A DNA stretch of 64,000 bases, taken from Bacteroidales bacterium. GTDB lineage: Bacteria; Bacteroidota; Bacteroidia; Bacteroidales; WCHB1-69. Positions 2,868-46,842 of the stretch are shown here, in pieces. The notes under the pieces were generated by a model. That model was given only the letters and a program-made list of their open reading frames with translations. It was not told the DNA's origin and searched no databases. The DNA is taken from contig JAQUWC010000001.1 of assembly GCA_028693085.1 (NCBI GenBank), positions 18,951 to 82,950 of the forward strand, read 5' to 3'. The first letter of the stretch is position 1; every line of letters starts with the position of its first letter. The position numbers and the translations under genes were made by a program.

Positions 2868-2990
2868 TTAACTCAAATTATTTTGCCAAAAACTAACAAT
2901 ATTACTTCCGTTGACTCGTTATCTTTACGTTATTAAAAATTATTGTAGATTATTCTTTGTAAACCTATTAATTAACAATATCAAATTAGC

Positions 2991-4325
2991 ATGAAACATT
3001 TCATCTTTGGTTTATTATTATTTCTTTTTATCCCTGCATTACAAGCACAATATCAAATTGAATATTGGGAGAATGAAAACAAACGTAGCGAAGGAAACAT
3101 AATCAACGGTGAAAAAGACAGCGTGTGGATATATTATTATTCCAACGGCAAAAAACAAATGCAAGGGACTTATCAACAGGGGAAACGTATTGGTAATTGG
3201 AAATCATGGTATTCAACGAGTCAATTGTGGTCGGATTATTATCCTGAAACCGGTACATTTACTTCTTGGTATCCCAATGGGAATATCGAAAGCAAAGGCT
3301 ATTTCAAAGACTATCAAAAGAACGGCGAATGGCTGTTTTATCACAACAACGGCAGAGTTAGTAAAAAATGTACTTATGTCAACGATTCATTAGAAGGGTT
3401 GTGTGAAGAATTTCATCCAAACGGAGTCAAATCATTTGAAGGCTATTACCGTAATAATAATTTATACAATGTGGGTCGATGGTGGTATGATAATGGCAAA
3501 ATGGAAATGGCGGGTAAGCTGCACGATGGTTTGCAAGACAGCATATGGCACTACTACTATGAAAACGGACAATTGGGCAGCAGAGGGAATTTTATAGACG
3601 GTAAGCAAGATGGCATTTGGGTGTATTATTATGAAACCGGCGAGAAATGGAAAAACGGTGCGTATAAAGAAGGGAAAAGAATCGGTGTATGGACAGCTTG
3701 GTATGAAAGTGGCAAAAAACAACGCCAAGGTAGTTTCCTCGACGACAAAGAAAACGGCAATTGGGTGCAATGGTATGAAAACGGGAATAAAATGGATGAA
3801 GGCAATTTCTGCTTAGGCGAAATGTGTAAAACTTGGGAAGGCTGGTATGAATCGGGAGTCCTTAAATACCGTATTCAATATCAAAATAATGTTAAAAATG
3901 GAACCTATGTTTATTACTGGGAAAATGCTAAGTTTAGAAGTAAAGGTTATTACAGAAATGATATTAAAGATGGAAAATGGACGGAATATTCCCAATTAGG
4001 CCTTAAATTAGAAGAAGGTAAATTCAAAGAAGGGAAAAAGGAAGGTATGTGGTCGTTTTATGGAAAGAGAGGTGAATTGGTTAGAAAACAAAATTTTAAA
4101 GATCATCTTCCCAATGGCAAATGGATAGAATACTATCCCAATGGGATCAAACAAAGAGAAGGTTCCTATGAAAACCTTGCCAAAACCGGAGTATGGACCT
4201 ATTACGACGAAAAAGGAGAAATTACATATCAAGTATTATATAAAAATAATATGATATTTAAAGTATTAAAAGACAAAAAACCTAACAATAAAACATCACC
4301 TGAAATAAATACGAAAATTCGATAA
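2991..4325 (+). CDS. Secreted MORN-variant repeat protein (YwqK-like repeats)
   Basis: Signal peptide MKHFIFGLLLFLFIPALQAQ, followed by about 18 iterations of G.W..(W/Y)Y.NG......Y..GK..G.W. Confidence 0.7.
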   Translation: MKHFIFGLLLFLFIPALQAQYQIEYWENENKRSEGNIINGEKDSVWIYYYSNGKKQMQGTYQQGKRIGNWKSWYSTSQLWSDYYPETGTFTSWYPNGNIESKGYFKDYQKNGEWLFYHNNGRVSKKCTYVNDSLEGLCEEFHPNGVKSFEGYYRNNNLYNVGRWWYDNGKMEMAGKLHDGLQDSIWHYYYENGQLGSRGNFIDGKQDGIWVYYYETGEKWKNGAYKEGKRIGVWTAWYESGKKQRQGSFLDDKENGNWVQWYENGNKMDEGNFCLGEMCKTWEGWYESGVLKYRIQYQNNVKNGTYVYYWENAKFRSKGYYRNDIKDGKWTEYSQLGLKLEEGKFKEGKKEGMWSFYGKRGELVRKQNFKDHLPNGKWIEYYPNGIKQREGSYENLAKTGVWTYYDEKGEITYQVLYKNNMIFKVLKDKKPNNKTSPEINTKIR

Positions 4326-18685: not shown

Positions 18686-21600
18686 CTATCGCTGTACGTT
18701 CATTTTTCTGACAATGGTTTTGCCTTTGTATGTCAGGCTGTAATAATAAATGCCATTGGATAAATGATTCGTAGGAAGATAGAATTCGTTCTTTCCGGCT
18801 TCTGCCTGCTGCACTTCCTGATACAACACTTGGCCTTTGACGCTGCTTAGTATACAACGAATTTCTCCATCCTGTGGCACATAATAAGGGATGACGGTTG
18901 AAGTCAGGGCAGGATTGGGTTGGTTTTGTTCTACATACCATTGATTTTCCGTATATGTATTGATGCCAAAGCCCGGATTATAAACTACGCAAGCCTCTAT
19001 GCGGAGGGTGTCGTTGAGTGGATCTATATCCTTTTCAACGGCATTGATAAAGGCTGTTACACGATAGGTTTCGTTGCTGTCTTCAATATTCGGCACTTTA
19101 TAAGGAGTGGAAAATGCAAAGGTTTCCGCCGATTTGGCATAGACCGTGACGGTACGACCCAATTCTTTTACTCTTACATTACCGCTATCAATATGAACGA
19201 TTAATCGAACCCCAACGACGTCGCTATCACCATGATTGGTTAATTCAACGGCGGTATAGACAAAGTGAAAACCGGTATCGCAATCTTCTTCGGTTGGTTT
19301 TTCAATCTTGGTAACAGCAATATCATTGACAATGATGCGAGCGTTGATAAACTTCATATTATTGGCTGCAACCACATCGCAAGCAAGTTCAGATTGTATG
19401 GATAATTGATAATAGGGTTGGATGAGATTCGCTTCGGGTACGATAAATCCCTTCTTAAAGGTGTAATATATAGAATCGCCGGGAAGCAAAGAGGCATTCA
19501 ATGTTTCGGTTATGTCATTTGCATTGTTGATTTTCAAGCGTAATGGCACTTGTGTTACCTTTGGGCTTCCGGCATTTTTCACCCAAGCACTTGCATATAC
19601 CGTATCGCCGGTCGATTTCGGGCTGATGTCGCGAATGTAGGTAATGGCGATGTCAGGATTGATTTCAATCGTTTTTCGCAACGTGTCATTCAAGGAATTG
19701 CTATCAACGCTGTTGATAAACGTGAGGAGTCTATAGCTTCCATGGATATTAAAGTCATAATTGTTGACTATCACCAGGGTATCGCTTTGTCCTCCTAGTA
19801 ATACCTTAGTATTTAATATATAGGTTGTATCAAAGGAAGGTCCGGTAGGATGTGTCAGATTTACGTTCAAATGAGTGTTGTTATGACTAAAATCGAAAGT
19901 TTGGGAGGTGTTGTTGCTTATGATGAGCTTCAATGATTTATTCATAAAATCACAATCTTGCAAATCGGGCACCAGAATTTCGCTGATTTTAATATCGGGA
20001 GCTGCCGCTACACGAATGCGGTCGATGTTTTGATTATTACCTCCGTAACTCTGTGCTTCAAAAGCAAAAACAACACAGGATTGATTGGAATAAGCCGACA
20101 AATCCACTCGGTAGTATTTCCATGTGGGGGTTTTAAAGTTGGAATCATAGCGAAATACATTAATCAAAGAGGTATAAGTAATTCCTCCGTCGGTAGAGAC
20201 ATACACATTGATTTGGTCGCGTGCATCGGGAGCACTGTTGTCATGCGCATACCAAAACTCAAGGGTGGGACTATAGGTGCCTTGTAAATCGAGAGGTTGT
20301 GTAATAGCCTGTGCCATCGATCCTTTCCCGGATGCCGAAGCAAATCGTAATCGACCACTGCCAAATACAGGTGAAATAGGGGGAGAGCTTTCATTGCCTG
20401 CCATCACTTCCCAATTCAAACTACCGGTAAGATTATGGAAAGTCATTTCTGTGGGAGATGTGCTGAAATCAATATCCAAGGGGAGATAGGCTTTGTTTAC
20501 ATGATAGGTATATTGCAGACTATCGTCGGAATGTATGGTGTCGACGGAACAACTTAAATAAGCACGGATGTGATAATCGCCGTTTATGTGGACGGGTATC
20601 ATACGTGCAATCTCAAAAGTATCTTGTTGCATTTCAGCCAATGTCCCGGCTGATATGATGGTATCATGTTGATAAAGTATGTTTCCACTTATTTCTACAT
20701 GTAGATGTAAAGGGGTTAAAGCAAAGTTAAATGGGAAGATACCGTTGTTTGACAAGGCGATTTTTACGGAGGTATAGTCGGGATAACATCCTCCTATTGC
20801 ATTGACAGGTTCCACGAGATAGGCTGCACTTAAATCATAATCTTCATAGAGTGCTACCGAATAAGCTCCTATCACCGTTAAGGATGTTCGAGCTTTCTTG
20901 TCCATATCAGTAAGGACCAAAGTATCTCTCGGACACATCAAGCCTATGTAGTCGGTCAATCGCAAGTCTTTGGACACATCGACAAACTTAGGCAAAAGGC
21001 TTACCGAATGCGCATCTTGCTGGGTGGTAGTTCGCCAAACGGATAGATTCGCCACATTGCCGTTAGCATAGCCAATATAAGCTGCATAGTAATTGTTGTA
21101 ATCCATAAACAAGGAGGTGCCCACATAATTAGTATTGCTGAGATACAAAGCATATCCGCTGGTAGATGTAGTTACTAAATTATTATTTTTAACTTTTACC
21201 ATATAGTCTTCGATAGGATTGAGGTAAATCAGTCTATTGGCTCCGCTGCCATCCATCCATACGGAATTATGCATGATGTTTACGCGGCTATTGCTAACAT
21301 AAATAGCCGATGAGGTGGAGTTTGCATTAAGGATAATATCGTTGTTTGCTATTAAGCCTGAGGTATGGGTGTTATTGTAATTTACATAATTCAAGTAAAT
21401 GCCGTAGGGATAATTGATAGAAGGATTGAAACTACGAATTTTATTTCCGCTTAAGGATTCCACATTGCAATAAACACTATATAATCCGTAGAAATAATTG
21501 TACGTATTGCTTAAACGGGAGCTTACAATATTATCGGAAAGACTGATAAAGTCGGTATAATAAAAATAACCTCCATAGTAATAGGCATTCGACAACATGT

Positions 21601-24600
21601 TTCCATTAATGATTATGTTGGTTCCGTAATCACTTGTACCATCACCACCATAAAAATAAATATTGTAATAACCCCCATCAATGCGATTATGTAAAATACG
21701 AATGTTATTGACAATGCCCGTACTCGATTTATATATTCCGGCATAGGTAGTAGAACTTGCCGTAGGATTAGCCTTAATCACACATTGGTTGATTTCGATG
21801 TTTTCGCAAGCATTTCCCAATTGAATAGCCCGAGTTCCGGAACTTGCATCCAAAGTAATATGTGTAAAGACTAAATCGCTAGTATTAGCAAGGTTTAAAA
21901 CTACCCCCGATGATTGGAAAACTACGTCGGAAGCGATGCCTGTTGAAGAAGTAATAGTGACTGTATGGCTCTGATTACATCCTATAAAAGATTGATTAAT
22001 AGAAAATCCGTTATACGTTCCCGGCAGCATTTGTAGAACAACCGGCCCTGAAACGCCACAGCTTGTGAGCACTTGGAAAGCATCGTTCAGTGTTTGGAAA
22101 TCGGCACTCGACGATCCCACGAGATAGGTTCCGTTTAATACTTGGTTGCAACCTAATGATGTTGTTTCGATGGTATCATTGGCCTGGTTATCATCCATAG
22201 CTTGGCCGTTGGGTAATTCTATCCATGCTTTGATGTTCGCATTTACATTGTTGATGGGGATATAGTTTCCAATTACGATGACGGTATCTTGATATTGAGC
22301 CAATGCTAATCCACTAATGTTAACGGCGGTCATGGTATTGTTATTAACTTTCCATTGAATACGTAAAGACTGTAAGATAGTCGTACCGGAATTACTTATG
22401 TTTATGCTTACTGGAGTAGGTGTGCCGGCAATGGCGCTTTGAGGCGGCGATACAAACGTTTCCAATCCTGCATCAAAATTAAAGCTAGGTACATAACAGC
22501 CCATATAAGTGTTTTGTCCGCGCGTTATTCCTTTAATATCACGTAATATCAATGGATTTCGAGGACAAATCAAGCCTACCCATGATAGGGGTTCTGCGCT
22601 GATTTCGGTTTGAGCAAAACCTGGATTCACCGTATTTGAATGCATGTTTAAGGAGGGGTAGGCGTTTTGCCACTCGTGTAAACCGGAATAAGACGTTCCC
22701 CAATAAACAAAATCAGTTCCAGAAGTATAATAATTATTGTAATCGACAGTGCCTGCATACGAAGATGTTGGAACATACAATAGATAAGAGGCATTTCCTA
22801 AATTAACAAATAAATTATTGATTATATTGATGCCATTGCTAACGGTCGAATACTTATACATCATATACGATATAGAAGCATTGGATGTGGCAAGCAAGGT
22901 GTTATTTATGTTTTGCCATTTACCCCCATAGGATTGATAAACCATATATGTTCCATTCCCTTTCTGAATAAACTCATTATTTGCCAATAGAATATCAGCT
23001 ACTGTCGTTCCGTGATTGCTGAAACAATAATTCAAATAGGCTAAGGTGGTAAAGTTGCCGACGATAGTATTATTTATAATACGTGTAATATCAGACATTA
23101 CTCCATTGGAATAATTTATATACAATCCATAGCCCCCTTGAGAGGGATTTTTATAGAGTTTATTATTTGAAATGGTATTTACATTGGAATAAGCAATATA
23201 AATACCGTAATAATGGAATTGATTAAGAATATTATGGGTAATACTGATATCGTAGGAGCTATAATTATTCGATGCAGATTGTATCCAAATACCTCCACTA
23301 CCGTGGAAATAATTATATGTAATCACCAGGGAAGTATCCAATGAATTATTGGAATAAATGGCCATTAAGGCTTCCGAAGCACTCGTATCGGTGGAAGTCT
23401 GGATACAATTATGTGTAATAAGAATATTTTTATTGCTATTTTTCAATTCTATGGCATTTGAATTTTGTCCCGATAAGATAGCATTGACAGTTAAATTTCT
23501 CAGGATAATATTGTTTGTATTAGAAAGTGAGATAGCTGCTTTTTCGGAAGGACTTTGAATGATTACGGAAGAAGAATCGCCATTAGCCGATGTAAGGGTT
23601 AATGTATGTGTGCTGTTTGTCCCCGGTATGGAAGGGATGTACACGTTTTCGACGTATGTTCCGGCGTTAATATAAAGCGTTGTAGGAGATGATATTCCAC
23701 AATATGACAATGCTTTTATTGCTTCCGATATGCTGGTATAATCAGCTCCGCTCCCTCCAACATAATAGTGACCCGATAAAGTAGAATCACATCCATAGAC
23801 TTCAACCCGCAAGGTGTCATTGCTTAAATCGTTATCTGTTTGACCATTTGGCAATTCTGTATATATCATAAGGGTATTGCTTCCCGATAAAGCTACAAAA
23901 TTGCCTAAATAAATGGGTGCACTGACTTCCATTACATTCAGATTACCGGTCCATGGCAAACTTTGAATCAAGACACCGTTGATTTTTAAATGGATACTCA
24001 TAGCGTTTATCACATTGGAACCCATATTTGCAACGCGTACAAAGACTGAATCACTCATTCCGGCACTCACTTGATTCATAGGTGATACTAAGGTGTGTGG
24101 CATGACATTGTAAGGAAGTATGATAAAATCGTTATACGCTCCTACACTTGTGATAATTCCTCTGGTATTTCCGTTAATATCACTCAATACATCTTTAATT
24201 TGGTTACACGTTAACCCCATTCCATCGGTTTTTAGACTGTTGGGAAAATCAACAAATCCCGGATTGATATTTGTTGAATGCACATCTTGTCCGCTGGTCA
24301 TTTTCCACAAAGCTAAATTCGAAATTCCGGAAGTAATGAATCCGATGTAAGAACCATAGTAATTATTATAATTTAAGGTTAATCCGTTAAAAGAGGGTAA
24401 ATACATGGGATATACCAAGTTTGAATAAGTCCCTATGTTGTTTTGTCGAATGGCAATGGGGTAATTAATGTTGGTATTTGCATATAAACCTTTAGCTGCT
24501 GCAGAGGCCGTTAGATGTATGGAATTATGGTATATATTTACTTTACTGTAGTTTACATACATTCCGTAGGCATCGCTTGATTTGGCTTGGAGATTAATTT

Positions 24601-27600
24601 CATTATTGCTTATTAAGCCCGTCGATACAGCATTATAATAATTTACATAATTCACATACATACCGTAAATCTCATTGAAGGGCTCATGACTATAAATTTT
24701 GTTGGCATGTATGGCAGATACATTCGAATAACATATGCTTAACCCGTAGTATAAGGACGAAGTGTTTGTTTTACGTGTATGTATACTGTTATTAGAAATG
24801 CTATTAAAATTGCTGTAATACAAATAAGCACCGCGCTCATACGCATTGGATAATACATTATCATTTATAATTATGTTATTAGCAAATTCAGACGTATTAA
24901 GACCTCCTTCAAAATAAATATTATAGCAAGCGCCATCTATGTTGTTATGTAATATACGGATATTATGTACTACACCGGAAGAAGCCTCCTTATAAATTCC
25001 GGCATAACGTGTCGAAGTTGTATCACATTTGATATGACAGTGATTGATTTCGATGTTTTCGCAAGCATCCTTAAATAGAATGGCATAAGAGCCTTGTGTC
25101 AAGTCAAAACTAAGATGATGTAGAACAATATTATTGACGTTCCCAAACAAAACGGCCGTATCAAAAGAAACTATGGTAACACTATCGGCATTTCCGGACA
25201 GTGAAGCAAAGGTCAAAGTGTCGTTTGCTGTCATGCCCGGTATGTGATGTGTGAAATCAAGGTTTTCGGTATATATCCCATTTTGGAGGAGAAAACTAAC
25301 ATTGCCGGCAATGCCGCAAGTATTTAACTCAAGAAATACCTGTGCAAGGTCGACAAAATCAGCACCTACACCTCCCACCGTATAGGTTCCGTATAATATC
25401 CTATTACAGCCTAAAGATTGAGTGCTAATGGTATCGTTAAAGGTGTTTTGATCGGTTTTCCCATTAGGATTATCGACCCATGCCGTCAAATGAGTTATGT
25501 TTCCAAGGCTTGGCAAATAACTTCCTATCAATATATTGGTATCTTTATATTGAGGCAAATTCAATCCGGTTAAGTTTAAGGGTGTCCCCAACACACTGTC
25601 GATTTTCCAATGGATGTTTATACTATGTAAGGTATCATATCCCCAATTTGTTAAGCTTACGGTTACATTTGTTTGAGTAACGGTAGCATTCCCTTGTGGG
25701 CTAACAAACGCTTTTAATCCGGCATCTAAATCATAAATAGGCACATAGCATCCCATATGGGTAGACAAACTACGGTCGATTCCTCGAATATCATTCGTTG
25801 CCAAATAGTGAGACGGGCATTCTAATCCATTCCATATGGATGGAATGGCATTCAAAGTAGAATCTTTACATTTAGGATGAAGAGTTACGGAATGTATGTT
25901 AAGGGTTGGATAAGCACTTTGCCATAACAACAAATCATTGTAGGCAGTACCTCCCCAATAGGCTACTGCATTGGCATTTCCTTTCCAATAATTATTATAA
26001 TCAACACTTCCTATATAAGTAGATGTAGCAGTATTGCAATATACAAGATAGGAACAAGAACCTAAATTTGCAATGATATTATTTATAAGATTAACGCTTT
26101 CCGTTGAACTTGTGTTTCTATAAATCATATAGCTTGTGGTTCCGGTATTTATCAGGCTGTTATTTATGTTTTGCCATTTTCCTCCGTAATTTTGGTAAAT
26201 CAAATAATTACACCCTGTTCCTGTTTGGATTAATTCATTGTTTGCAAATAAAATATCCGAAGAAGCTAAACCGCCATGGCTGTAACAATAGTTCATATAA
26301 GCTACATAAGCATATTCGCCAATGAATGTATTGGATGTTATTTTCGTTATGTCGTCCATAACACCATTACAATAATACATGTAAATACCGTAGCCTTGAT
26401 TGGATGCATTGCTTTTGTAAAGAGTATTGTGATGTACTTTGTTTATCCCCGAATAATACATATAAATACCATAATAATAAAAATTCTCTATGATATTATT
26501 TTCAATGGTGATATTGTAGGAAGCTGATGAAGCTTGATTGGCCGATTCTATCCAGATACCCCCGGTTCCAAATAAATGATTATTTCGTATAATAATATTT
26601 GTGTCTTGTGAATTATCTGAAATAATTGCCATGATAGCAGGTGAAGCATAAATGGACGGACAGGTATGCATGTAATTGTTTGTAATCAGGATATCTTTAT
26701 TTTTGTTTTTAAATTCGACACAACGAGAGGCACTTCCCGATAATATCCCTTCCAAGGTAAGATGACTGATGGTGATATGTTTTGTGTTATCCAAAATAAT
26801 CACACCGCTGGCTGAAGTAGCTTGAATGATTACTGAAGAAGAATCACGGTTGGTTGATGTGATGGTAATGGTATTTACGGCACTGGCTCCCGGAATATTG
26901 GGAATGATTAAATTACCACGATAGGTTCCTGCATTTACAGAAATCGTAGTAGGACCATAAACTCCACAATACGAAAGAGCTTCTATGGCTTCGTTCAAGC
27001 TATTAAAATCATTCCCATATAGACCAACCGTATAGGTTCCGCTATAACCGGAACCGCAACCAAAGGTATTAAACACCAATGTATCGTTCGTTGGGAGATT
27101 GTCGGCTTGTCCATTGGGCAAAGAAGTATAGACAATGATTGAATTATTTTCCGCTTGAGGATTGAAATAACCTAAGGTAATAGGCGAAGTTGTTGTATTG
27201 GGTAATAAAATTCCTGTCCAATGATAGGGAGTTTGTAAAGTTCCATTTACTTCCCAATGTATTTGTAGGTTAGTAATCGTATCTGTACCTACGTTTAAAA
27301 CAGTAATGCTTACGGCTGTTGAGGTGCCAATTTGTGAGACTTTAGTAGGCGATAAAAGCGTCCGCGGCATGATATCCAGTGGATATGGATCGCCATGATA
27401 AGCTCCCACCGTGGTATTGGGAGTGCGGATATTATTGTCGATATCCGTTAAAACATCCGGCAGACGAGGACAGTCCAATCCACTATAATCAACAATGTTT
27501 AAGGTTTGAGGATTAAAAAATGTAGGATTAATGCTTTTGGAATTACCATCCTGTCCGACGGCAGTTTTCCATAAGGTCAGGTTGGTGATGTTGTTGCCGG

Positions 27601-30600
27601 CGTAGGCTAAATAAGAGCCAATGGTAAAATAATTGTTATAATCCATCATAAAACCGGAGGTGTATGTCAATGAAGGAAAGTACATCACATGATTGTAGAT
27701 GGAATAAACATCGTTTGATAAATTAATAAAATTATTGTTTTTTAGCACATTATTATTAAGAGAGCTGGACACATAAAAGCATTTTCCTTCGCCGTTTCCA
27801 CTTATAAGCATGGAGTTATGTAAAAATTTAATATAATTACTTCCTGTGGACACATACATACCGTAATTGCTTCCACTTACTTTTGCTATGATTTCATTGT
27901 TGTAAACGTACAGATAATTGGAATCCTTATTGCTGGCATAATAAAAATACATACCATAATAGGTTTGATATATATAAAGTTTATTGTTTCTCAAAAAATT
28001 ACCGTTTGAACGATTCAAATACATGCCATAAAAGTCAACTAAAGTAAGATTTGCATTATAGCGTTGTTCAATATAGTTGTTCGAAACTTCATTGAAGTTG
28101 ACATAATTCAAATACATGCCGTAAAAATCAACGTTGATGATATCATTATTTTTAATCGACACATTTTCACCTCCTCCCATCAGATAAATTCCTGCCGAAC
28201 CACCGTGAATAATGCTGTTGAGAATACGAATATTATTCACCGGATTAGCGGAGGGACTAAAAACAACAGAAAGTTGATTTGGAATGTTTGTAGCCGAAAC
28301 GAAAGTAGGGATTAACAGTATACAATTGTTAAACTCAATATTTTCAGCCCCATTTCTCAACACCACAGCCTTGGAATAATACATCGGACTTCGATGTTGA
28401 CCGTAAACAGCAATATTTTTAAACAACAAATGTTTCACGTTTTTCAGATCAATGGTGCCAATGTCTTGTGCCGAATCAAGAGCTGTATAGATAATCACAT
28501 CTTCTTTAATGCCTGTAGTAGAGGTAAAGCTTATGGTATTTGTAGCATTACACCCGCGAATGGTATCATCTAAAATGATATTTTCGACATATAAACCGGG
28601 GAAGATAGCGAATGTGACCGGGCCAGATATACCACAGGATTTTATTCTATGCAAAGCATCGGCGATAGTTGCAAAATTACCGGAAGTTCCTATGGTATAA
28701 GTTCCTGACATCAACGAATCACAACCATAAGTTTCTGTCTTTATCGTATCGTTTGTTGGATCTTGATCAGCTTGATTATTGGGAAATGACGTATAGACAA
28801 TGATTTGATTATCGCCTGGCGAAGCCATGAAATTCCCCAACTTAATGGGTTGAGTCGTATCGCCTGGTGACAAAGAACCCGACCATGCATATTGTGTCAT
28901 AAGTACACCATTTACTTTCCAATTAATCTTCATAGATGTAACGGTATTAGATCCAATATTTAATACAGAAACAACTACCGAATCGTTTCCGCTAACGGTA
29001 CTTAAATCGGAAGGAGAGTATATATGATAGGGCATTACATTGTTGACTTTGAGAATAAAATCGTGGTATGCTCCCATGGTTGTCATAAGTCCACGTGCTA
29101 TCCCATTCATATCCGTAGGAACATGCGGGTGACTTTGACAAATGATACTACCACCCGATGTTTTCAAATTGACGGAAGTATCGACGAAATTAGGATAAAC
29201 ACTAACAGAATTAGCATCTTGTCCGGTCGTACTCCTCCAACTACTCATGCTTGTAATAGTGGATGTAGCATAACCTATATAGCCTAAATGACTATAATAA
29301 TTATTATAATCAAAAAACCATGTGTTTCCTAAAGAGTTTAAATTAGTAAAATATATCGGAACAGCTGTAACCAAATTATTGTTTCTGACTTGTAAATCTG
29401 TGGAGCTCGATATATATATTCCAATATTAGTAGCGTTCGAAAGCTCTAATGCCAATATAGAATTATGTACCACCTCCATACGTGAAGAAATAATATATAA
29501 AGCATAAGAGGAAGTCGATGATTTTATTCTTATTTCATTATTTGAAAGGACGACAGGGGCAGCCGTGCTTGAGTTATTACAATACCCTATATACATACCA
29601 TAAACATTGCTAATAGGAGCAGGAACATAGATTTTATTTCTACTGATAGAAGGGGCATCACAATAATACATTCTCAATCCGTAGAAATTAGAATAGGTGT
29701 TGGTTGTTCGTGAACGTATTATATTGTCAGACAACTGATCAAAATCGGCATAATAAAAATAGGTAGCGTAATAATAGGCATTGCTTAATGCATTACCGGA
29801 AAAAATAATGTGCGATCCCCTTACTGTCGAACTGGTGCCGCCATACAAATATATGTTATAATATCCTCCATCTAATATGTTGTTAATAATGCGAATGTTA
29901 TGATGAACACCTCTACCGGAAGCTTTATAGATACAAGCATGGGTTGATGAGTTCGTAGTAGGATTTGTTTTAATGACACATGAATTGATTTCAATATTTT
30001 CGCAAGGGCCTGTAAATTCTATACCTTTTGATCCGGTTGTTACATCAATACTCAGGTTTTTAAAAACAATATTATTCACATTGCCAAGTTGCACAGCAAC
30101 ATCTGATGATTGGATAATCACACTGTCGGCATTTCCTGAGGCAGACATAAATGTAAGGGTATCAAAAGCTCCCATTCCTTCAATAGCAGCATTTATATGT
30201 ATGTTATCCGTATAGGTTCCGTTATAAATTTTAAAGATGGTATTGCCTGACATTCCACACACATTCAATTCATTTAATGCAGCTGATATCGAATTAAAAT
30301 TATTACTTCCGGCAGGCCCTCCAATCGTATACTCTCCATTGAAAATGGTATTGCATCCATAAGTAATATATGAGAGCGTATCGTCTGTTTCCAACGAATC
30401 TGTCACAGCATTGGGGTTTTTCACCCAAACAAGGAGAGTATCATATCCAAGGTTTGGGGTATAATTTCCTATATAAATGGGATTTGATGCAAAATCAACA
30501 GGTAAATTACCTCCCGACCAATGATAACTGGGCTGTACTACACCGTTTACACTCCAATATATATCTGTACAATTTAAAGGATTTAATCCTGTATTTTTTA

Positions 30601-31615
30601 TCCTTACATAAACGGGCATACTTTGATTGGCAACTACTTTCATAATATGGGGGGTGTCAATCGCCAACATGGCTGCTCCGTTTAAAAAGTTGGGACTATT
30701 CGGATGCCTCTTATTGATAAAAGTATATGCTACATTTACAGAGTTTCCTACGGAGTCTTCGGCTCTTACGGTATAATCTACTTGTGTTCCATAGACTTGT
30801 TGAGAAATAGGATAGGCATACAAGTTAGCATCTATTTTATTCATTCTCACCTGATTCGGGAAGCCATGGTTTATGCTATAGGTTAAGCCTATCAACGAAT
30901 CTTCCGCATCGACTACATTGGCAACGATATTGAAAGGTCCTACACCATACACAGTATCTTTATAAATTGGATTTATCAAGGTTAAGACTGGCGGGTCTAA
31001 TTCATGAGAACCTCCACGAAGTTCAAAATTATCGATTAACCAACCATACGCAAACTGAGTACCAATAACATTTCCTCTAATGATTTTAAATCTGAAACGA
31101 ACAATGCCGAAACTGGCTTCTCCCGAAATATCAAAACGTTCTTCTTTCCACCACGCATTGGTTGGGGTAGCCAAGGAATCGGAAGGTTGCCAATCTGCAT
31201 AACTAAAATGATTAAATCGTTGTTGATTATAAGCCGATGGATTACTTCCTAAATAACAACTTGAAGGTAATTTTTCCCACTTTGCACCGGTTGTATTCTC
31301 TTGAATTTCGATCTGGGCTATATCGCTGCCGGCCAGTTTACATATATGATGAAAACTTAACCATACAAATGCATAAGCCGAACAATCGTAAAATGGAGTG
31401 GTTATCGTTATGGAATCATGCAACTGATTGGGAACAAATCCATGATATGAGTTTGGATTGCTTACTGCATAGATTGCGTTAGGCACCCAGGAAGATGCCG
31501 GACTAACACTCCAATTCATAGCACCATCAAAATTTTGTGTGCCAATGATTGTTTGTGATTTGACAGTAAAAATAAAAAATCCAATTATACTAATCAAAAA
31601 TAAAACTTTTTTCAT
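18686..31615 (-). CDS. Giant T9SS-sorted surface protein (4309 aa): signal peptide, MAM-like domain, Ig-like domain, six [CARDB-like + parallel beta-helix] modules, a CARDB-like/MAM-like tail, and a Por_Secre_tail CTD
   Basis: A single uninterrupted ORF. N-terminal signal MKKVLFLISIIGFFIFTVKSQ. PbH1-like turns such as NIRI.NN.IDGGYYNIY.YGG recur throughout. The last ~79 aa (nt 18689-18925), NQPNPALTSTVIPYYVPQDGEIRCILSSVKGQVLYQ...LSNGIYYYSLTYKGKTIVRKMNVQR, match the type-A T9SS sorting domain pattern. Confidence 0.85.
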   Translation of the reverse strand: MKKVLFLISIIGFFIFTVKSQTIIGTQNFDGAMNWSVSPASSWVPNAIYAVSNPNSYHGFVPNQLHDSITITTPFYDCSAYAFVWLSFHHICKLAGSDIAQIEIQENTTGAKWEKLPSSCYLGSNPSAYNQQRFNHFSYADWQPSDSLATPTNAWWKEERFDISGEASFGIVRFRFKIIRGNVIGTQFAYGWLIDNFELRGGSHELDPPVLTLINPIYKDTVYGVGPFNIVANVVDAEDSLIGLTYSINHGFPNQVRMNKIDANLYAYPISQQVYGTQVDYTVRAEDSVGNSVNVAYTFINKRHPNSPNFLNGAAMLAIDTPHIMKVVANQSMPVYVRIKNTGLNPLNCTDIYWSVNGVVQPSYHWSGGNLPVDFASNPIYIGNYTPNLGYDTLLVWVKNPNAVTDSLETDDTLSYITYGCNTIFNGEYTIGGPAGSNNFNSISAALNELNVCGMSGNTIFKIYNGTYTDNIHINAAIEGMGAFDTLTFMSASGNADSVIIQSSDVAVQLGNVNNIVFKNLSIDVTTGSKGIEFTGPCENIEINSCVIKTNPTTNSSTHACIYKASGRGVHHNIRIINNILDGGYYNIYLYGGTSSTVRGSHIIFSGNALSNAYYYATYFYYADFDQLSDNIIRSRTTNTYSNFYGLRMYYCDAPSISRNKIYVPAPISNVYGMYIGYCNNSSTAAPVVLSNNEIRIKSSTSSYALYIISSRMEVVHNSILALELSNATNIGIYISSSTDLQVRNNNLVTAVPIYFTNLNSLGNTWFFDYNNYYSHLGYIGYATSTITSMSSWRSTTGQDANSVSVYPNFVDTSVNLKTSGGSIICQSHPHVPTDMNGIARGLMTTMGAYHDFILKVNNVMPYHIYSPSDLSTVSGNDSVVVSVLNIGSNTVTSMKINWKVNGVLMTQYAWSGSLSPGDTTQPIKLGNFMASPGDNQIIVYTSFPNNQADQDPTNDTIKTETYGCDSLMSGTYTIGTSGNFATIADALHRIKSCGISGPVTFAIFPGLYVENIILDDTIRGCNATNTISFTSTTGIKEDVIIYTALDSAQDIGTIDLKNVKHLLFKNIAVYGQHRSPMYYSKAVVLRNGAENIEFNNCILLIPTFVSATNIPNQLSVVFSPSANPVNNIRILNSIIHGGSAGIYLMGGGENVSIKNNDIINVDFYGMYLNYVNFNEVSNNYIEQRYNANLTLVDFYGMYLNRSNGNFLRNNKLYIYQTYYGMYFYYASNKDSNYLYVYNNEIIAKVSGSNYGMYVSTGSNYIKFLHNSMLISGNGEGKCFYVSSSLNNNVLKNNNFINLSNDVYSIYNHVMYFPSLTYTSGFMMDYNNYFTIGSYLAYAGNNITNLTLWKTAVGQDGNSKSINPTFFNPQTLNIVDYSGLDCPRLPDVLTDIDNNIRTPNTTVGAYHGDPYPLDIMPRTLLSPTKVSQIGTSTAVSITVLNVGTDTITNLQIHWEVNGTLQTPYHWTGILLPNTTTSPITLGYFNPQAENNSIIVYTSLPNGQADNLPTNDTLVFNTFGCGSGYSGTYTVGLYGNDFNSLNEAIEALSYCGVYGPTTISVNAGTYRGNLIIPNIPGASAVNTITITSTNRDSSSVIIQATSASGVIILDNTKHITISHLTLEGILSGSASRCVEFKNKNKDILITNNYMHTCPSIYASPAIMAIISDNSQDTNIIIRNNHLFGTGGIWIESANQASSASYNITIENNIIENFYYYGIYMYYSGINKVHHNTLYKSNASNQGYGIYMYYCNGVMDDITKITSNTFIGEYAYVAYMNYCYSHGGLASSDILFANNELIQTGTGCNYLIYQNYGGKWQNINNSLINTGTTSYMIYRNTSSTESVNLINNIIANLGSCSYLVYCNTATSTYIGSVDYNNYWKGNANAVAYWGGTAYNDLLLWQSAYPTLNIHSVTLHPKCKDSTLNAIPSIWNGLECPSHYLATNDIRGIDRSLSTHMGCYVPIYDLDAGLKAFVSPQGNATVTQTNVTVSLTNWGYDTLHSINIHWKIDSVLGTPLNLTGLNLPQYKDTNILIGSYLPSLGNITHLTAWVDNPNGKTDQNTFNDTISTQSLGCNRILYGTYTVGGVGADFVDLAQVFLELNTCGIAGNVSFLLQNGIYTENLDFTHHIPGMTANDTLTFASLSGNADSVTIVSFDTAVLFGNVNNIVLHHLSFDLTQGSYAILFKDACENIEINHCHIKCDTTSTRYAGIYKEASSGVVHNIRILHNNIDGACYNIYFEGGLNTSEFANNIIINDNVLSNAYERGAYLYYSNFNSISNNSIHTRKTNTSSLYYGLSICYSNVSAIHANKIYSHEPFNEIYGMYVNYVNYYNAVSTGLISNNEINLQAKSSDAYGMYVNYSKVNIYHNSIHLTASAAAKGLYANTNINYPIAIRQNNIGTYSNLVYPMYLPSFNGLTLNYNNYYGSYIGFITSGISNLALWKMTSGQDVHSTNINPGFVDFPNSLKTDGMGLTCNQIKDVLSDINGNTRGIITSVGAYNDFIILPYNVMPHTLVSPMNQVSAGMSDSVFVRVANMGSNVINAMSIHLKINGVLIQSLPWTGNLNVMEVSAPIYLGNFVALSGSNTLMIYTELPNGQTDNDLSNDTLRVEVYGCDSTLSGHYYVGGSGADYTSISEAIKALSYCGISSPTTLYINAGTYVENVYIPSIPGTNSTHTLTLTSANGDSSSVIIQSPSEKAAISLSNTNNIILRNLTVNAILSGQNSNAIELKNSNKNILITHNCIQTSTDTSASEALMAIYSNNSLDTSLVITYNYFHGSGGIWIQSASNNYSSYDISITHNILNQFHYYGIYIAYSNVNTISNNKLYKNPSQGGYGLYINYSNGVMSDITRIINNTIVGNFTTLAYLNYCFSNHGTTVADILLANNEFIQKGNGTYMVYQSYGGKWQNINNTLLATSNASISYMMYKYSTVSNGINIINNLFVNLGNASYLLYVPTSSYAGTVDYNNYYTSGTDFVYWGTSYSGLHEWQNAYPSLNMHSNTVNPGFAQTEISAEPLSWVGLICPRNPLILRDIKGITRGQNTYMGCYVPSFNFDAGLETFVSPPQSAIAGTPTPVSINISNSGTTILQSLRIQWKVNNNTMTAVNISGLALAQYQDTVIVIGNYIPINNVNANIKAWIELPNGQAMDDNQANDTIETTSLGCNQVLNGTYLVGSSSADFQTLNDAFQVLTSCGVSGPVVLQMLPGTYNGFSINQSFIGCNQSHTVTITSSTGIASDVVFQSSGVVLNLANTSDLVFTHITLDASSGTRAIQLGNACENIEINQCVIKANPTASSTTYAGIYKSSTGIVNNIRILHNRIDGGYYNIYFYGGDGTSDYGTNIIINGNMLSNAYYYGGYFYYTDFISLSDNIVSSRLSNTYNYFYGLYSVYCNVESLSGNKIRSFNPSINYPYGIYLNYVNYNNTHTSGLIANNDIILNANSTSSAIYVSNSRVNIMHNSVWMDGSGANRLIYLNPIEDYMVKVKNNNLVTTSTSGYALYLSNTNYVGTSLFMDYNNYYAAYIGYANGNVANLSVWRTTTQQDAHSVSLLPKFVDVSKDLRLTDYIGLMCPRDTLVLTDMDKKARTSLTVIGAYSVALYEDYDLSAAYLVEPVNAIGGCYPDYTSVKIALSNNGIFPFNFALTPLHLHVEISGNILYQHDTIISAGTLAEMQQDTFEIARMIPVHINGDYHIRAYLSCSVDTIHSDDSLQYTYHVNKAYLPLDIDFSTSPTEMTFHNLTGSLNWEVMAGNESSPPISPVFGSGRLRFASASGKGSMAQAITQPLDLQGTYSPTLEFWYAHDNSAPDARDQINVYVSTDGGITYTSLINVFRYDSNFKTPTWKYYRVDLSAYSNQSCVVFAFEAQSYGGNNQNIDRIRVAAAPDIKISEILVPDLQDCDFMNKSLKLIISNNTSQTFDFSHNNTHLNVNLTHPTGPSFDTTYILNTKVLLGGQSDTLVIVNNYDFNIHGSYRLLTFINSVDSNSLNDTLRKTIEINPDIAITYIRDISPKSTGDTVYASAWVKNAGSPKVTQVPLRLKINNANDITETLNASLLPGDSIYYTFKKGFIVPEANLIQPYYQLSIQSELACDVVAANNMKFINARIIVNDIAVTKIEKPTEEDCDTGFHFVYTAVELTNHGDSDVVGVRLIVHIDSGNVRVKELGRTVTVYAKSAETFAFSTPYKVPNIEDSNETYRVTAFINAVEKDIDPLNDTLRIEACVVYNPGFGINTYTENQWYVEQNQPNPALTSTVIPYYVPQDGEIRCILSSVKGQVLYQEVQQAEAGKNEFYLPTNHLSNGIYYYSLTYKGKTIVRKMNVQR
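20850..30690 (-). repeat. Six tandem ~1.64-kb coding modules inside the giant gene, diverged, in subtype order A-C-B-A-B-A
   Basis: The conserved [Y/F/L]GC landmark recurs at aa ~419, 962, 1518, 2068, 2606 and 3154. Approximate module starts are nt 30688, 29052, 27376, 25732, 24124 and 22487. Confidence 0.75.
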
Positions 31616-32799: not shown

Positions 32800-32835
32800 A
32801 AAGATGTTTTCGTATGAACGAAACATCTTTTTTTA
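32800..32835. terminator. Bidirectional terminator at the fabG / hypothetical-gene convergence
   Basis: AAAGATGTTTTCG-tatga-ACGAAACATCTTT followed by a T-run. It overlaps the stop codon of the minus-strand gene. Confidence 0.55.
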
Positions 32836-33612
32836 ATATTTTAAAACAAAAGGCAGGCTTTCTTTATTCTCTTCATATTCCTTTATTAAAAGCTGGCGCA
32901 AGTTTTCATTATGTAATATGGACATGCACATGGCTCCCTGAGCACGTAATAAACGCTCTTCTTTATCCAATCCGAAATTTAGCGGATAGAGACTTTTTAA
33001 TCCATCAATTAGAATTTTTTTGGTGTTAAATTCATTGTCAGCATCGTAATAATTCAAGATTGTTACGATACAAAAAGTTTCCATAAAGGGCTTTCTTACT
33101 TTTTGTGTAGATGCTATCAGATTAATCTCCGAACAGACTTTCCCTACAAAATGTCCTTCGTTATTGATTCTCTGTATCATGAAATATTTTACGGCAATAT
33201 CCATTAAGGTATTAATGTGAATTACATCTTTTTTAAGGGTATTATTGATGGTTTTATCCGTCCATTCATTGAGTAATGCATGAAAAACACTATCCATTTG
33301 TAAGCGTAAAAAATATTCTTTTTCTATTGCAATAGTGTCTTCCCATTCTGATAAATCATGGGTTTGTATGGTGGAAAAAGTATGTAATAACTCATCAATG
33401 TATTGATAATTTCCACAAAGCGGAGCATTTACCAAAGGAGCGTAACATGTTGTATCATTAATTTTAGCACATGAAACAACAATGCTTTGACTTTCATCAA
33501 ATGTAATTTTTTTTACCCTTATAAAATCACTGTAAGCATTGCCAATATTACAATACTGTGCATTTGATTGCACTGATAATGAAAGCATCGAAACAATTAA
33601 TAATTTTTTCAT
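32833..33612 (-). CDS. Hypothetical secreted protein
   Basis: Signal peptide MKKLLIVSMLSLSVQSNAQ. Cys-rich N-terminal part. No family recognised. Confidence 0.5.
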   Translation of the reverse strand: MKKLLIVSMLSLSVQSNAQYCNIGNAYSDFIRVKKITFDESQSIVVSCAKINDTTCYAPLVNAPLCGNYQYIDELLHTFSTIQTHDLSEWEDTIAIEKEYFLRLQMDSVFHALLNEWTDKTINNTLKKDVIHINTLMDIAVKYFMIQRINNEGHFVGKVCSEINLIASTQKVRKPFMETFCIVTILNYYDADNEFNTKKILIDGLKSLYPLNFGLDKEERLLRAQGAMCMSILHNENLRQLLIKEYEENKESLPFVLKY

Positions 33613-43362: not shown

Positions 43363-43498
43363 CATGCACTAAAAAAGTGGATAGATTTGATTTGATTGCA
43401 ACCACTAAAAAATGCTAAAACAATAACATTTCTCTCAGTCATTTCACTTTATTCATCTTTTTTTAAATTTATGAATATTAATTTAAAAAATAAAAAAA

Positions 43499-44836
43499 AT
43501 GGCTTATTTATTTACATCCGAATCCGTTTCGGAAGGGCATCCCGACAAAATATCGGATCAAATATCAGATGCATTATTAGATGAATTTCTTCGTCACGAC
43601 CCTCAGTCGAAAGTGGCATGCGAGACATTGGTAACCACGGGTTTGGTGGTGTGTGCCGGTGAAGTGAGGACAAATAGTTATATCGATATACAACGTGTTG
43701 CGCGCAATGTGATTGAACAAATCGGTTATACCAAAGGAGAATATATGTTTGAAAGCAATTCCTGCGGTGTGATTTCAGCCATACATGAACAATCGCCTGA
43801 TATTTATCAAGGAGTAGATCGTGAGGACATAGAAAACCAAGGAGCCGGTGATCAAGGTATGATGTTCGGTTATGCCGTGAAAGAAATGGATAATTTAATG
43901 CCTTTGCCTATCGAATTGGCGCATATTTTTATGCAAGAATTAGCCGCCATACGCAAAGAAGGTAAGAAAATGAAATACCTTCGTCCCGATTCCAAATCGC
44001 AAATCACTGTAGAATACAATGCCAAAGGTGTTCCTGTGAAAATAAACACCATTATCATTTCCACTCAGCACGATGAATTTGTCAAAGCTGAGAATCAAAG
44101 CAAAAAAGCCCAAGATGTGGCTGATACTAAAATGTTAGAAACCATAAAAACAGATGTGGAAAAGGTATTAATCCCTCGTGTTAAGAGCGTTTGTCCTCCC
44201 CATATTCGTCGTTTATTTAAAGGAGATTACAACTTATATGTAAATCCTACCGGTAAGTTTGTTATTGGTGGTCCTCACGGCGACACGGGACTCACTGGAC
44301 GAAAAATCATTGTCGACACCTACGGGGGAAAAGGAGCACATGGTGGAGGTGCTTTTTCGGGGAAAGACTCTTCGAAAGTGGATCGTTCGGCGGCTTATGC
44401 CGCCCGTCATATTGCCAAAAATGTCGTTGCGGCAGGAATAGCGAAAGAAGCTTTGGTGCAAGTAGCCTATGCTATCGGCATAGCCCGTCCGGTGGGAGTA
44501 TTTGTAAATACATATAATAGCTGTTTAATAAAAGATAAAAACGGGAAAAAAGTATCCGATGGTATCATAGCCGAAAAAGTAATGGAGCTCTTCGATTTAC
44601 GTCCTTATGCCATTATTCAACGTTTCGGATTGCAAAACCCTATTTTCCAACCGACAGCAACCTACGGCCATTTTGGAAGAGATTGTTATAAGCAAGAAGT
44701 TGAAGTGTTTTATAAAGACAAAAACACGAAAACAAAAATCGTTAACGGTCAGGAAAAGTATTTCAAAGAAGTGGAATTCTTTGCTTGGGAAAAGGTAGAC
44801 TATGTCGAAAAATTAAAAAAGGCATTTGATATATAG
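43499..44836 (+). CDS. metK: S-adenosylmethionine synthetase
   Basis: [28 protein letters not shown]...[12 protein letters not shown]...[21 protein letters not shown]...[18 protein letters not shown]. Confidence 0.95.
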
Positions 44837-44943: not shown

Positions 44944-46842
44944 ATGGAAATTACAAGAACATTTGAATTATTAGACTGGATATCCGAAAAATATCAAAAA
45001 AACGATATCCTTGCAGGAAAAAAAGACGGAGAATGGATAAAATACAGCGTAACCGATTATATAAAGTATGCTACATTAATGAGTTATGGCTTTTACGAAA
45101 TAGGATTGCGTAAAGCCGATAAGGTAGTTACCATCACAAATAATCGGCCGGAATTTAATATTATCGACATGGCGTTGAGTATGATAGGAGTTATTCATGT
45201 GCCTATCTATCCAACCTTAAATCCCAGTGAATATGAAGTTATCATTAATCATTCCGATGCAAAAGTTATGATTATTGGTACTCAATCCATATATAATCGG
45301 ATTGTTCCTATCGTCGACAAATTGCAAAACAATCCGGTTATTTATACATTAGATAAAATCGCGAAGGAAAAAGAACTGTACGACATTCTTAAATTAGGGA
45401 TACTAAACCGTAAAAAGAATGCGGATATTATCCATGAAATTAAAAAGACCATAACCCCCGATGATGTAGCTACCATTATTTATACGTCGGGAACTACCGG
45501 CGCTCCGAAAGGAGTGATGCTTTCGCACAAAAATATTATTTCAAATTTTACCGCTCATGCCGAAGCCCAACCCTTAAATCATAATCATAGAATAGTGAGC
45601 TTTTTGCCATTGTGTCATATCTATGAACGAAGCATGAATTATGAATATCAATATTTGGGAGTAAGTGTATATTATGCCGAAAGTTTAGCTACCATTGCCG
45701 CGGACATCTTGGACGTAAAAGCCCATGGTTTTTGTGCGGTTCCCAGAATTTTAGAAATGGTTTATGACAAGTTTATAGCTGCCGGAAAAGATTTAACCGG
45801 GATAAAAAAAATCATTTATTCGCTTGCTATTTATCACGGACATAAATATGATATGAACAAAGGAGCCTTTTATGTCTTTTGGCAAAAATTATTTGATAAA
45901 CTGGTATACGTAAAGTGGCGTGAAAAACTCGGTGGCAATAAAATGGCTATCGTATGCGGAAGCTCCGCAGTGAGAGAGAAAATAGTACGTTTGTTTCATG
46001 CGGCAGGTTTGGAGATATACGAAGGCTACGGCCTTTCCGAAACCTCTCCCGTAATTTCCGTAAATAGCCCTACGACCAAGCAAATTAAATTGGGAACAGT
46101 AGGGCCTATTCTGAAAGGAGTGGAAGTGAAGATTGCCGACGACGGCGAAATCCTTACCAAAAGTCCTTCACTGATGTTAGGCTATTATAAGGACCCCGAA
46201 TATACCAAACAAGTGATTGACAGTGATGGATGGTTTCATACGGGAGATATTGGTATGTTTGTCGATAATAAATATTTGAAAATTACCGACAGAAAGAAAG
46301 AGATTTTTAAACTATCGTCTGGAAAGTATATTGCACCCCAAATGATTGAAAACAAATTGAAAGAGTCTCCATTAATTACAGATATTATGGTGATAGGCGA
46401 GAATGAAAAATTTGCTTCGGCTATCATTTCACCTAATTTTAATTATTTGCATTTTTGGGCCGGAAAACACAAAATTCATTATAGAGACAACGCGGAATTA
46501 ATACTTCATCCCGAAACCGTTAAACGCTTTCAAAAAGAAATCGATACTTTTTGCAAAGCACTGGCGCCCTATGAACAAATAAAATGTTTCCGATTGGTCG
46601 AAGATGAATGGAGCCCGCAAACAGGAGAACTTTCGCCTACCTTAAAGCTTAAACGCAATGTTTTAACAAAAAAATATAAAGCAATTATTGATCAAATATA
46701 TAATAAAACTACTCCTTCAAGTGGTCATGGATTTAGTTTGAAACAAATCAATCTGTCATTGATTCAATTGAAATCGACCATCGATTCAGCCATCAAGAAA
46801 AACACCGACACCCATAAGTCCGATAATAATAATATTGACTAA
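44944..46842 (+). CDS. Long-chain fatty acid--CoA ligase (AMP-binding), paralog 1
   Basis: IIYTSGTTGAPKGVMLSH (AMP-binding P-loop), EGYGLSETSP, GWFHTGDIG, ELSPTLKLKR. Carries an extra ~40-aa C-terminal tail relative to paralog 2. Confidence 0.85.
   Translation: MEITRTFELLDWISEKYQKNDILAGKKDGEWIKYSVTDYIKYATLMSYGFYEIGLRKADKVVTITNNRPEFNIIDMALSMIGVIHVPIYPTLNPSEYEVIINHSDAKVMIIGTQSIYNRIVPIVDKLQNNPVIYTLDKIAKEKELYDILKLGILNRKKNADIIHEIKKTITPDDVATIIYTSGTTGAPKGVMLSHKNIISNFTAHAEAQPLNHNHRIVSFLPLCHIYERSMNYEYQYLGVSVYYAESLATIAADILDVKAHGFCAVPRILEMVYDKFIAAGKDLTGIKKIIYSLAIYHGHKYDMNKGAFYVFWQKLFDKLVYVKWREKLGGNKMAIVCGSSAVREKIVRLFHAAGLEIYEGYGLSETSPVISVNSPTTKQIKLGTVGPILKGVEVKIADDGEILTKSPSLMLGYYKDPEYTKQVIDSDGWFHTGDIGMFVDNKYLKITDRKKEIFKLSSGKYIAPQMIENKLKESPLITDIMVIGENEKFASAIISPNFNYLHFWAGKHKIHYRDNAELILHPETVKRFQKEIDTFCKALAPYEQIKCFRLVEDEWSPQTGELSPTLKLKRNVLTKKYKAIIDQIYNKTTPSSGHGFSLKQINLSLIQLKSTIDSAIKKNTDTHKSDNNNID

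Follow-up and report, generated by a model that had tools for sequence, protein, structure and literature searches.

Some surface proteins carry several right-handed beta-helix (RBH) domains in one chain. The adhesin-like proteins (ALPs) of the methanogens Methanobrevibacter smithii and Methanosphaera stadtmanae have repeated RBH domains, up to seven in YP_001273761, and were argued, in a description resting on sequence analysis and AlphaFold, to be polymer binders rather than polymer degraders (PMC11532034). Bacterial fibrillar adhesins have a stalk of repeated domains and an adhesive domain at the tip (PMC8286594, PMC9210967). Here we describe a giant gene of an anaerobic-digester Bacteroidales bacterium whose predicted product holds six complete beta-helices, each paired with an immunoglobulin-like (Ig-like) domain, and ends in a type IX secretion system (T9SS) sorting domain. 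The gene lies in a 64,000-nucleotide stretch of contig JAQUWC010000001.1 (assembly GCA_028693085.1, positions 18,951 to 82,950 of the forward strand), hereafter the window. NCBI names the product 'right-handed parallel beta-helix repeat-containing protein' (MDD2622058.1 and others) and labels C-terminal fragments of it 'choice-of-anchor J domain-containing protein'.

The giant protein is like the ALPs in combining several complete, N-capped right-handed beta-helices with Ig-like domains in one surface protein. Compared by description, not by sequence, the ALPs differ in being archaeal, in having other anchors and no T9SS C-terminal domain (CTD), and in lacking both a strict Ig-plus-helix repeat unit and conserved head and tail blocks. 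With fibrillar adhesins the protein would share a long, secreted, multidomain layout with a repeated stalk, an anchor at one end, a distinct domain at the other and a repeat number that differs between lineages. However, typical fibrillar-adhesin stalks are made of small Ig-like repeats that are often near-identical, whereas the repeat here is a 545-residue Ig-plus-beta-helix unit, present six times in each of five species, with copies 27–49% identical.

A right-handed beta-helix also serves as an extracellular adhesive or structural rod in S. pneumoniae PfbA, in the two-partner and autotransporter adhesins EtpA and Fap2, and in FHA. Each of these has one continuous helix and uses sortase or type V secretion, unlike the six separately capped helices and T9SS signal seen here. 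Pectin-lyase-fold enzymes and phage tailspike depolymerases have the same arrangement of an N-terminal cap helix followed by three-stranded coils, but the giant protein shows no family-level match to them, no conserved catalytic residues, no evidence of trimerisation and no polysaccharide-utilisation locus (PUL) context. Single-module relatives such as P0008 (972 aa; N-terminal domain, CARDB, helix, PKD and T9SS CTD) have the Ig-plus-capped-helix unit, a C-terminal D..G..R motif and a type-A CTD, but they hold one unit among other accessory domains and are only 25–28% identical.

An intact gene conserved across species

18686..31615 (-): whole gene, 4309 codons plus stop, ATG start; product ~474 kDa

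The first-pass annotation, made from the letters of the DNA, reported one uninterrupted 4309-codon open reading frame (ORF) here, and this was borne out. The source DNA is ~35–40% G+C, and the probability of zero stops over 4309 codons, calculated from base composition, is ~1e-127. The remaining five frames across 18686..31615 contain 189–343 stops with a longest open run of 116 codons, and the longest open run among 200 shuffles was 185 codons.

Any repetitive giant ORF invites the suspicion that a collapsed or expanded repeat array, or a decaying pseudogene, has been read through by chance. That prior suspicion is all that favors an artefact, and we give the idea practically no weight. No DNA repeat within the ORF exceeds 67 nt or 93% identity, which leaves an assembler nothing to collapse. 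The 12,930-nt ORF differs by 0–1 nt among five contigs from different projects, and the identical 4309-residue protein occurs on at least 21 contigs, comprising ENA metagenome assemblies and three NCBI metagenome-assembled genomes (MAGs). With these independent assemblies in agreement and orthologs co-linear, misassembly, which the first-pass annotation had flagged for checking, was rejected.

Orthologs were sought in one genome per GTDB species with the whole protein as query. Four other species (L006, L007, L009 and L010) have full-length orthologs of 4308–4311 aa, and three further orthologs are interrupted at contig ends. The hosts are Bacteroidales/Lentimicrobiaceae MAGs, mostly from anaerobic digesters. 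All orthologs have six modules at identical positions by hidden Markov model (HMM), and the five full-length proteins align with only 0–4 gap columns across 4309 residues. Identity between the five species is even, at 56–74% in every domain. Compared with the L007 ortholog, non-synonymous divergence lies far below synonymous divergence (pN 0.20 vs pS 0.74, the latter saturated). The giant gene is intact and under strong purifying selection over its whole length. The strictness of length conservation across these five species is unusual for a repetitive surface protein. In Lentimicrobiaceae the near absence of indels in the six-unit version implies a precise structural requirement.

Six modules without linkers

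29054..30688 (-): module 1 (M1), aa 310-854; Ig/CARDB-like segment 310-421 and capped beta-helix 422-854; subtype A
27377..29053 (-): module 2 (M2), aa 855-1413; subtype C, ~33% identical to each other module
25733..27376 (-): module 3 (M3), aa 1414-1961; subtype B, 49% identical to M5
24125..25732 (-): module 4 (M4), aa 1962-2497; subtype A
22490..24124 (-): module 5 (M5), aa 2498-3042; subtype B
20852..22489 (-): module 6 (M6), aa 3043-3588; subtype A; weak CARDB match

An HMM built from the protein's own six modules finds exactly six full-length matches, at aa 309-854, 855-1411, 1409-1961, 1959-2499, 2498-3045 and 3043-3589. In nucleotide terms the matches start at 30688, 29053, 27376, 25732, 24124 and 22489 and end at 20851, within 1–2 nt of the boundaries of the six ~545-residue modules first read from the sequence. 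Gaps between neighbouring modules are 0 ± 3 aa. Pairwise BLASTP of the modules gave 27–49% identity over ~530–578 residues (E 1e-39 to 1e-172).

The modules fall into three subtypes in the order A-C-B-A-B-A: M1, M4 and M6 are mutually 40–43% identical, M3 and M5 49%, and M2 stands alone. This order suggests that a B-A pair of modules was duplicated long ago. Each module is 60–79% identical to the module at the same position in the other species and 27–51% identical to the other modules; the array is therefore older than these species and is not being homogenised. Tracing module history beyond the close clade, for example to a four-module A-C-B-A ancestor, was attempted and abandoned. No history could be inferred because modules outside the Lentimicrobiaceae-like orthologs resemble only the A type, at ~30–38%. 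Subtype B is rarely the best match in other family members.

The Ig, N-cap and C-cap motifs picked out in the first-pass annotation coincide with the invariant columns of the six-module alignment. These are P13, N32, G34, P92-N93, D97, D103-T104 and G111-C112 in the Ig segment, G118, Y120, G123 and C144-G145 in the N-cap, and W484, S494, P499, D526, R532, G539 and Y541 in the C-terminal motif; the helix body between them is an Asn/Tyr ladder. An acidic/amide cluster, PNGQ.D....NDT (columns P93, N94, D98, D104 and T105), varies least of all parts of the Ig segments, and hhalign finds it again in the Ig domains of the tail. Its pattern is reminiscent of the junction motifs with which cadherin-like and RTX-adhesin repeats bind Ca2+. 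Two cysteines, C113 closing the Ig segment ('GC') and C145 closing the N-cap helix ('CG'), are invariant in 30/30 module copies (six modules in five species). They flank the Ig/helix junction, correspond to aa 421 and 453 in module 1 with equivalents in all modules, and may form a disulfide staple there. A third cysteine, C518 in the C-terminal motif, is likewise invariant in all 30 copies.

Fold of the modules

That the modules hold beta-helices, as first proposed, was supported by family profiles, AlphaFold2 and Foldseek alike. PF13229 (Beta_helix) matches the whole protein at 46.3 bits, M2 at 27.0 and M3 at 33.9 (cut-off 25.9), and TIGR03804 (PbH1) matches M3 at 23.1 bits (cut-off 19.45). 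M1, M4, M5 and M6 taken alone have no PF13229 match; they are 27–49% identical to M2 and M3. In the AlphaFold2 model of aa 1-854, the M1 helix has ~12 three-stranded coils with a predicted local distance difference test (pLDDT) of 85–97. The coils are short and regular, without long loop insertions, and a capping alpha-helix (aa 443-453) precedes them. The N-cap motif GTYTVG..G.DF.S..EA...L..CG forms the first strand and the cap helix in this model. Foldseek against the viral models in BFVD returned pectin-lyase-fold and right-handed beta-helix phage proteins, annotated 'Right handed beta helix region' and 'Pectin lyase fold' (E 1e-10 to 1e-5, with template modelling scores on the target of at most 0.50). 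Against the PDB, the same aa 1-854 model found no solved beta-helix neighbour, and strings of Ig and jelly-roll ectodomains dominated the matches.

At the other end of the helix, the motif W....GQD..S....P.F is modelled as a short helix (aa 790-797), and the following D..G..R......MGAY stretch (aa 819-854) as a C-cap fold at low confidence. This stretch matches the D.DG..R....DIGADE sequence at which the helix of two single-helix homologs, P0008 and P0009, comes to its end and after which other domains follow. In P0001 and P0009 the N-cap directly follows the signal peptide. Because the same unit occurs singly in P0001, P0008 and P0009, the helix with both its caps is, judged from these sequences, an autonomous unit. 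The single-helix homologs thus agree with the initial view of six independently capped helices, each with its C-cap near the end of the fold.

The Ig part of each module is ~112 aa and is modelled in M1 as an Ig-like sandwich (pLDDT 80–90). Of the 'Ig/CARDB-like' label in the first-pass annotation, the Ig-like sandwich held up and formal membership in CARDB (PF07705) did not: the whole protein scores 21.7 bits against a gathering threshold of 22.7, M6 scores 14.6, and only 2/16 homologs match CARDB at E<=0.05. On the model, 'CARDB-like' would describe a resemblance only, the segment being established as an Ig-like sandwich.

Head, tail and secretion signals

31556..31615 (-): putative Sec-type signal peptide read from sequence, aa 1-20 (MKKVLFLISIIGFFIFTVKS); lacks a lipobox Cys
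31007..31555 (-): head domain 1, aa 21-203; beta-sandwich/jelly-roll, AlphaFold2 strands with pLDDT 40–88
30689..31006 (-): head domain 2, aa 204-309; Ig-like sandwich, AlphaFold2 strands at aa 210-301
20486..20851 (-): tail Ig-like domain 1, aa 3589-3710; AlphaFold2 pLDDT 81–92
19997..20485 (-): tail jelly-roll, choice-of-anchor J/MAM-like, aa 3711-3873
18929..19996 (-): three Ig/CARDB-like domains and a short linker, aa 3874-4229; predicted by AlphaFold2
18689..18928 (-): type-A T9SS C-terminal sorting domain, aa 4230-4309

MKKVLFLISIIGFFIFTVKSQ can be read at the N terminus and is kept in the orthologs, all of which begin with MKK or MKR and then a hydrophobic run. At the C terminus, the expected type-A T9SS sorting domain was recovered with TIGR04183 on aa 4233-4309 (34.1 bits, cut-off 23, with the last 100 aa searched), while PF18962 falls just under its threshold (26.9 vs 27). 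A second TIGR04183 protein is encoded in the window at 50734..52539 (-) (601 aa, 52.1 bits), its CTD immediately preceded by a '3-coathanger stack' (GCX_COOH) domain; this suggests that the host uses type-A sorting for other proteins too.

Head domain 1 is 73% identical across orthologs and is kept at the N terminus of many family members. No Pfam or NCBIfam family matches aa 21-203 or their homologs. In the PDB, Foldseek ranks the EphA4 ectodomain as the top match to the aa 1-854 model. The tail (aa 3589-4309) is modelled with a mean pLDDT of 85.5 as an Ig domain, a jelly-roll, three Ig domains and the sorting domain, and its best Foldseek match is the MAM-Ig-FN3 ectodomain of RPTPmu (2v5y, E 5.7e-14). 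The tail jelly-roll passes choice-of-anchor J NF038128 (35.3 bits, cut-off 30), and Pfam MAM stays below threshold (23.7 vs 26.4 bits). Tail Ig domain 1 of the orthologs weakly matches the CARDB part of the module profile, and hhalign aligned the module CARDB segment with tail residues 508-619 at 90% probability.

The modules had been described as bookended by MAM-like jelly-rolls. The C-terminal half of that claim stands on NF038128 and Foldseek; at the N terminus it found no family match, and the likeness there goes no further than a beta-sandwich fold. Head and tail jelly-rolls were also compared as profiles with hhalign, and their homology was left unproven (probability 0.8%, E 0.073). Because this comparison is not significant, MAM-like bookending is established only C-terminally. 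PDB sequence searches with the head profile and with the tail jelly-roll profile gave nothing significant.

A large, unnamed family

The six-module profile was searched against 1.84 billion cluster representatives (50%-identity clusters) and matched 11,187 at E<=1e-3, of which 4,315 also pass E<=1e-30. All of the best 150 of the 11,187 are 2187–7814 aa long. By hmmsearch, 148 of these 150 carry 3–11 full modules each, and in nearly all of them the modules abut (0 ± 3 aa), with few larger insertions. Homologs of the head and of the whole 721-aa tail, with 3–6 modules between, occur in 46 of the best 150, most of which finish in a CTD-like C terminus. A distant relative is encoded at L013 3922-12171 (+), in a Lake Pavin Bacteroidetes MAG, as a 2749-codon open frame with three full modules and an extra Ig segment, 22–28% identical to the window's modules. 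The family therefore extends well beyond digester Bacteroidales.

Judged by these sequences, the layout is the plan of a very large unnamed family, common rather than unique. The first-pass annotation knew of no characterised protein with this layout, and the rarity this implied does not hold: there are thousands of uncharacterised relatives, and tandem beta-helices have a methanogen precedent (PMC11532034). Adhesin-like proteins with tandem beta-helices are already known, as are giants anchored by the T9SS, and no new principle is involved. What the relatives point to is a plan shared by giants across Bacteroidota and the FCB group: a head, 3–11 Ig-plus-capped-beta-helix units, a tail and a T9SS CTD. 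The family comprises at least 4,315 50%-identity clusters at the stricter threshold, none of which appears to have been studied, and public annotation describes it only as 'right-handed parallel beta-helix repeat-containing protein'. Our reading of the literature on T9SS with beta-helix or CARDB, giant proteins, Lentimicrobium and choice-of-anchor J/Q found no study of it. The main value of the present finding is as an entry point to this huge uncharacterised family.

A possible surface fibre and its alternatives

We favor a T9SS-exported, surface-attached, fibrillar adhesin-like giant fibre, a reading that we consider about evenly balanced between right and wrong. The protein would be exported by Sec and then handed over to the T9SS via its type-A CTD. 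Type-A T9SS cargo is attached through its C terminus, and the giant protein would probably be linked in the same way, by a covalent bond between its new C terminus and the outer surface, so that the ~720-aa tail (Ig, MAM-like jelly-roll, three Ig) would lie next to the cell. The six linker-free modules would form a stiff shaft, with the N-terminal jelly-roll head at the distal tip. At full extension such a fibre would measure ~80–90 nm, since each ~12-coil helix in the model would contribute ~6 nm and each Ig domain ~4 nm. The head, and possibly the Tyr/Asn-rich helix faces, would bind polymers or other cells, which would aid attachment of a non-motile anaerobe within digester flocs or granules.

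We infer surface anchoring, an extended shape and an adhesive rather than catalytic function from several features. Head and tail are kept as blocks at the two ends, whereas lineages differ in their number of modules (3 to 6), and by Foldseek the all-beta strings of Ig and jelly-roll domains resemble receptor ectodomains and known adhesin stalks. The modelled anatomy would fit the operational definition of a fibrillar adhesin (Monzon and Bateman), with an unusual stalk unit and a putative adhesive domain. Other observations weigh against the fibre. The head belongs to no recognisable adhesive family, and confidence in its model is mixed. The relative orientation of domains is not reliably predicted (predicted template modelling score 0.51–0.58), which makes the extended shape an assumption. 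Moreover, each module has long remained different from its paralogs in the course of evolution (60–79% identity to positional orthologs vs 27–51% to paralogs). A pure spacer would have no obvious need of this, which suggests that the helices are more than spacers and may have module-specific roles. The modules share no paralog-wide catalytic residues, yet individual modules could have differing active sites.

The main rival, or complement, to a stalk is module-specific polymer binding, in which the protein would be a multivalent lectin array. Each beta-helix would bind a different polysaccharide along its long face, so that the whole, tethered to the surface, would capture glycans with several specificities instead of serving as a stalk with a tip adhesin. 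The positional conservation of the modules and their three subtypes agree with this, as do helices rich in Tyr (8–9%) and Asn (11–14%) and poor in charged residues (8–12%). However, no carbohydrate-binding family is matched, the gene lies outside any PUL and adjoins no SusC/D-like genes, and conservation of the head at the end of the chain suggests that the tip is important; we regard a lectin array as rather unlikely, if still a serious contender. Less probable than such binding is a surface-displayed array, in one chain, of enzymes that depolymerise or modify polysaccharides (PL, GH28-like, CE8-like or epimerase), for which we see little chance. The fold is common to pectate lyases, pectinesterases and phage tailspike depolymerases, the BFVD matches are to pectin-lyase folds, and the N-cap region weakly resembles pectinesterase (E 0.14). 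Against this, no catalytic beta-helix family (PL1/3/6/9, GH28, CE8 or similar) in Pfam or NCBIfam matches the protein, and only the generic models Beta_helix, NosD and para_beta_helix match the helices. PDB sequence searches with the module profile, with the profile of the N terminus plus M1 and with M3 alone gave nothing significant, pectinesterase and pectate lyase appearing only at E 0.14–0.2. In the helix body of the 30 module copies the invariant residues are Asn, Tyr, Ile, Gly, Ser, Val and Trp, and no Asp, Glu, Lys or Arg is invariant. The only widely kept charged positions, E386 (26/30) and H/N409, both sit beside ladder asparagines. Thus the PL/GH28-type catalytic constellation that the first-pass annotation had left room for is not conserved in the 30-copy sequence alignment or family profiles. 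The short, regular M1 coils and the housekeeping genomic context also argue against enzymes.

Between binding and catalysis lies the improbable proposal that the six helices are separate glycan-recognising or glycan-cleaving units of a single-chain, T9SS-displayed 'polysaccharide processing line'. Were it true, a 474-kDa protein would be analogous in function to a cellulosome or a PUL surface complex, and the thousands of related giants in metagenomes would make up a major, so far overlooked class of glycan machinery on Bacteroidota surfaces. We hold as equally improbable a protective or structural surface coat, S-layer-like or a spacer, with no specific ligand; a brush of many fibre copies would then fix the distance between cells or protect the outer membrane. 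The extreme conservation of length, and a sequence conservation that is uniform along the whole chain, speak for a coat. So do Foldseek matches of the tail model to an S-layer protein (7ptp) and to mastigoneme structures. On the other side, no domain for self-assembly was recognised, and jelly-rolls together with a conserved distal head are more typical of binding proteins. Should the protein mediate attachment or polymer capture, it would bear on floc and granule formation and on how uncultured anaerobes meet their substrates, Lentimicrobiaceae being abundant in anaerobic digesters.

Genomic context and other features of the window

The giant gene lies among housekeeping genes, and its context varies between species. 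On one side are an alanine symporter, SpoIID, a GT2 glycosyltransferase and SRP54, and on the other a short-chain dehydrogenase, a RecN-like protein, CoaBC and BamD. No PUL was found at the gene's locus, and Rfam and terminator scans gave nothing tied to the giant gene. Near the gene, a 259-aa ORF at 32833..33612 (-) has no NCBIfam match at E<=1e-5 and no Pfam on record.

Elsewhere in the window, the 870-aa ORF at 60677..63289 (-) also has no NCBIfam match at E<=1e-5, and the 444-aa ORF at 2991..4325 (+) has a weak, sub-threshold likeness to the LIC20035 family adhesin (88 vs 250 bits). Two adjacent paralogous genes, 44944..46842 (+) and 46855..48636 (+), encode AMP-forming acyl-CoA ligases with FadD11-like matches of ~300 bits, under the equivalog cut-off. 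A SAM-II riboswitch (RF01726) at 43371-43428 (+) scores 65 bits against a gathering score of 44 and lies directly upstream of the metK ORF at 43499..44836 (+) (methionine adenosyltransferase, TIGR01034, 486 bits).

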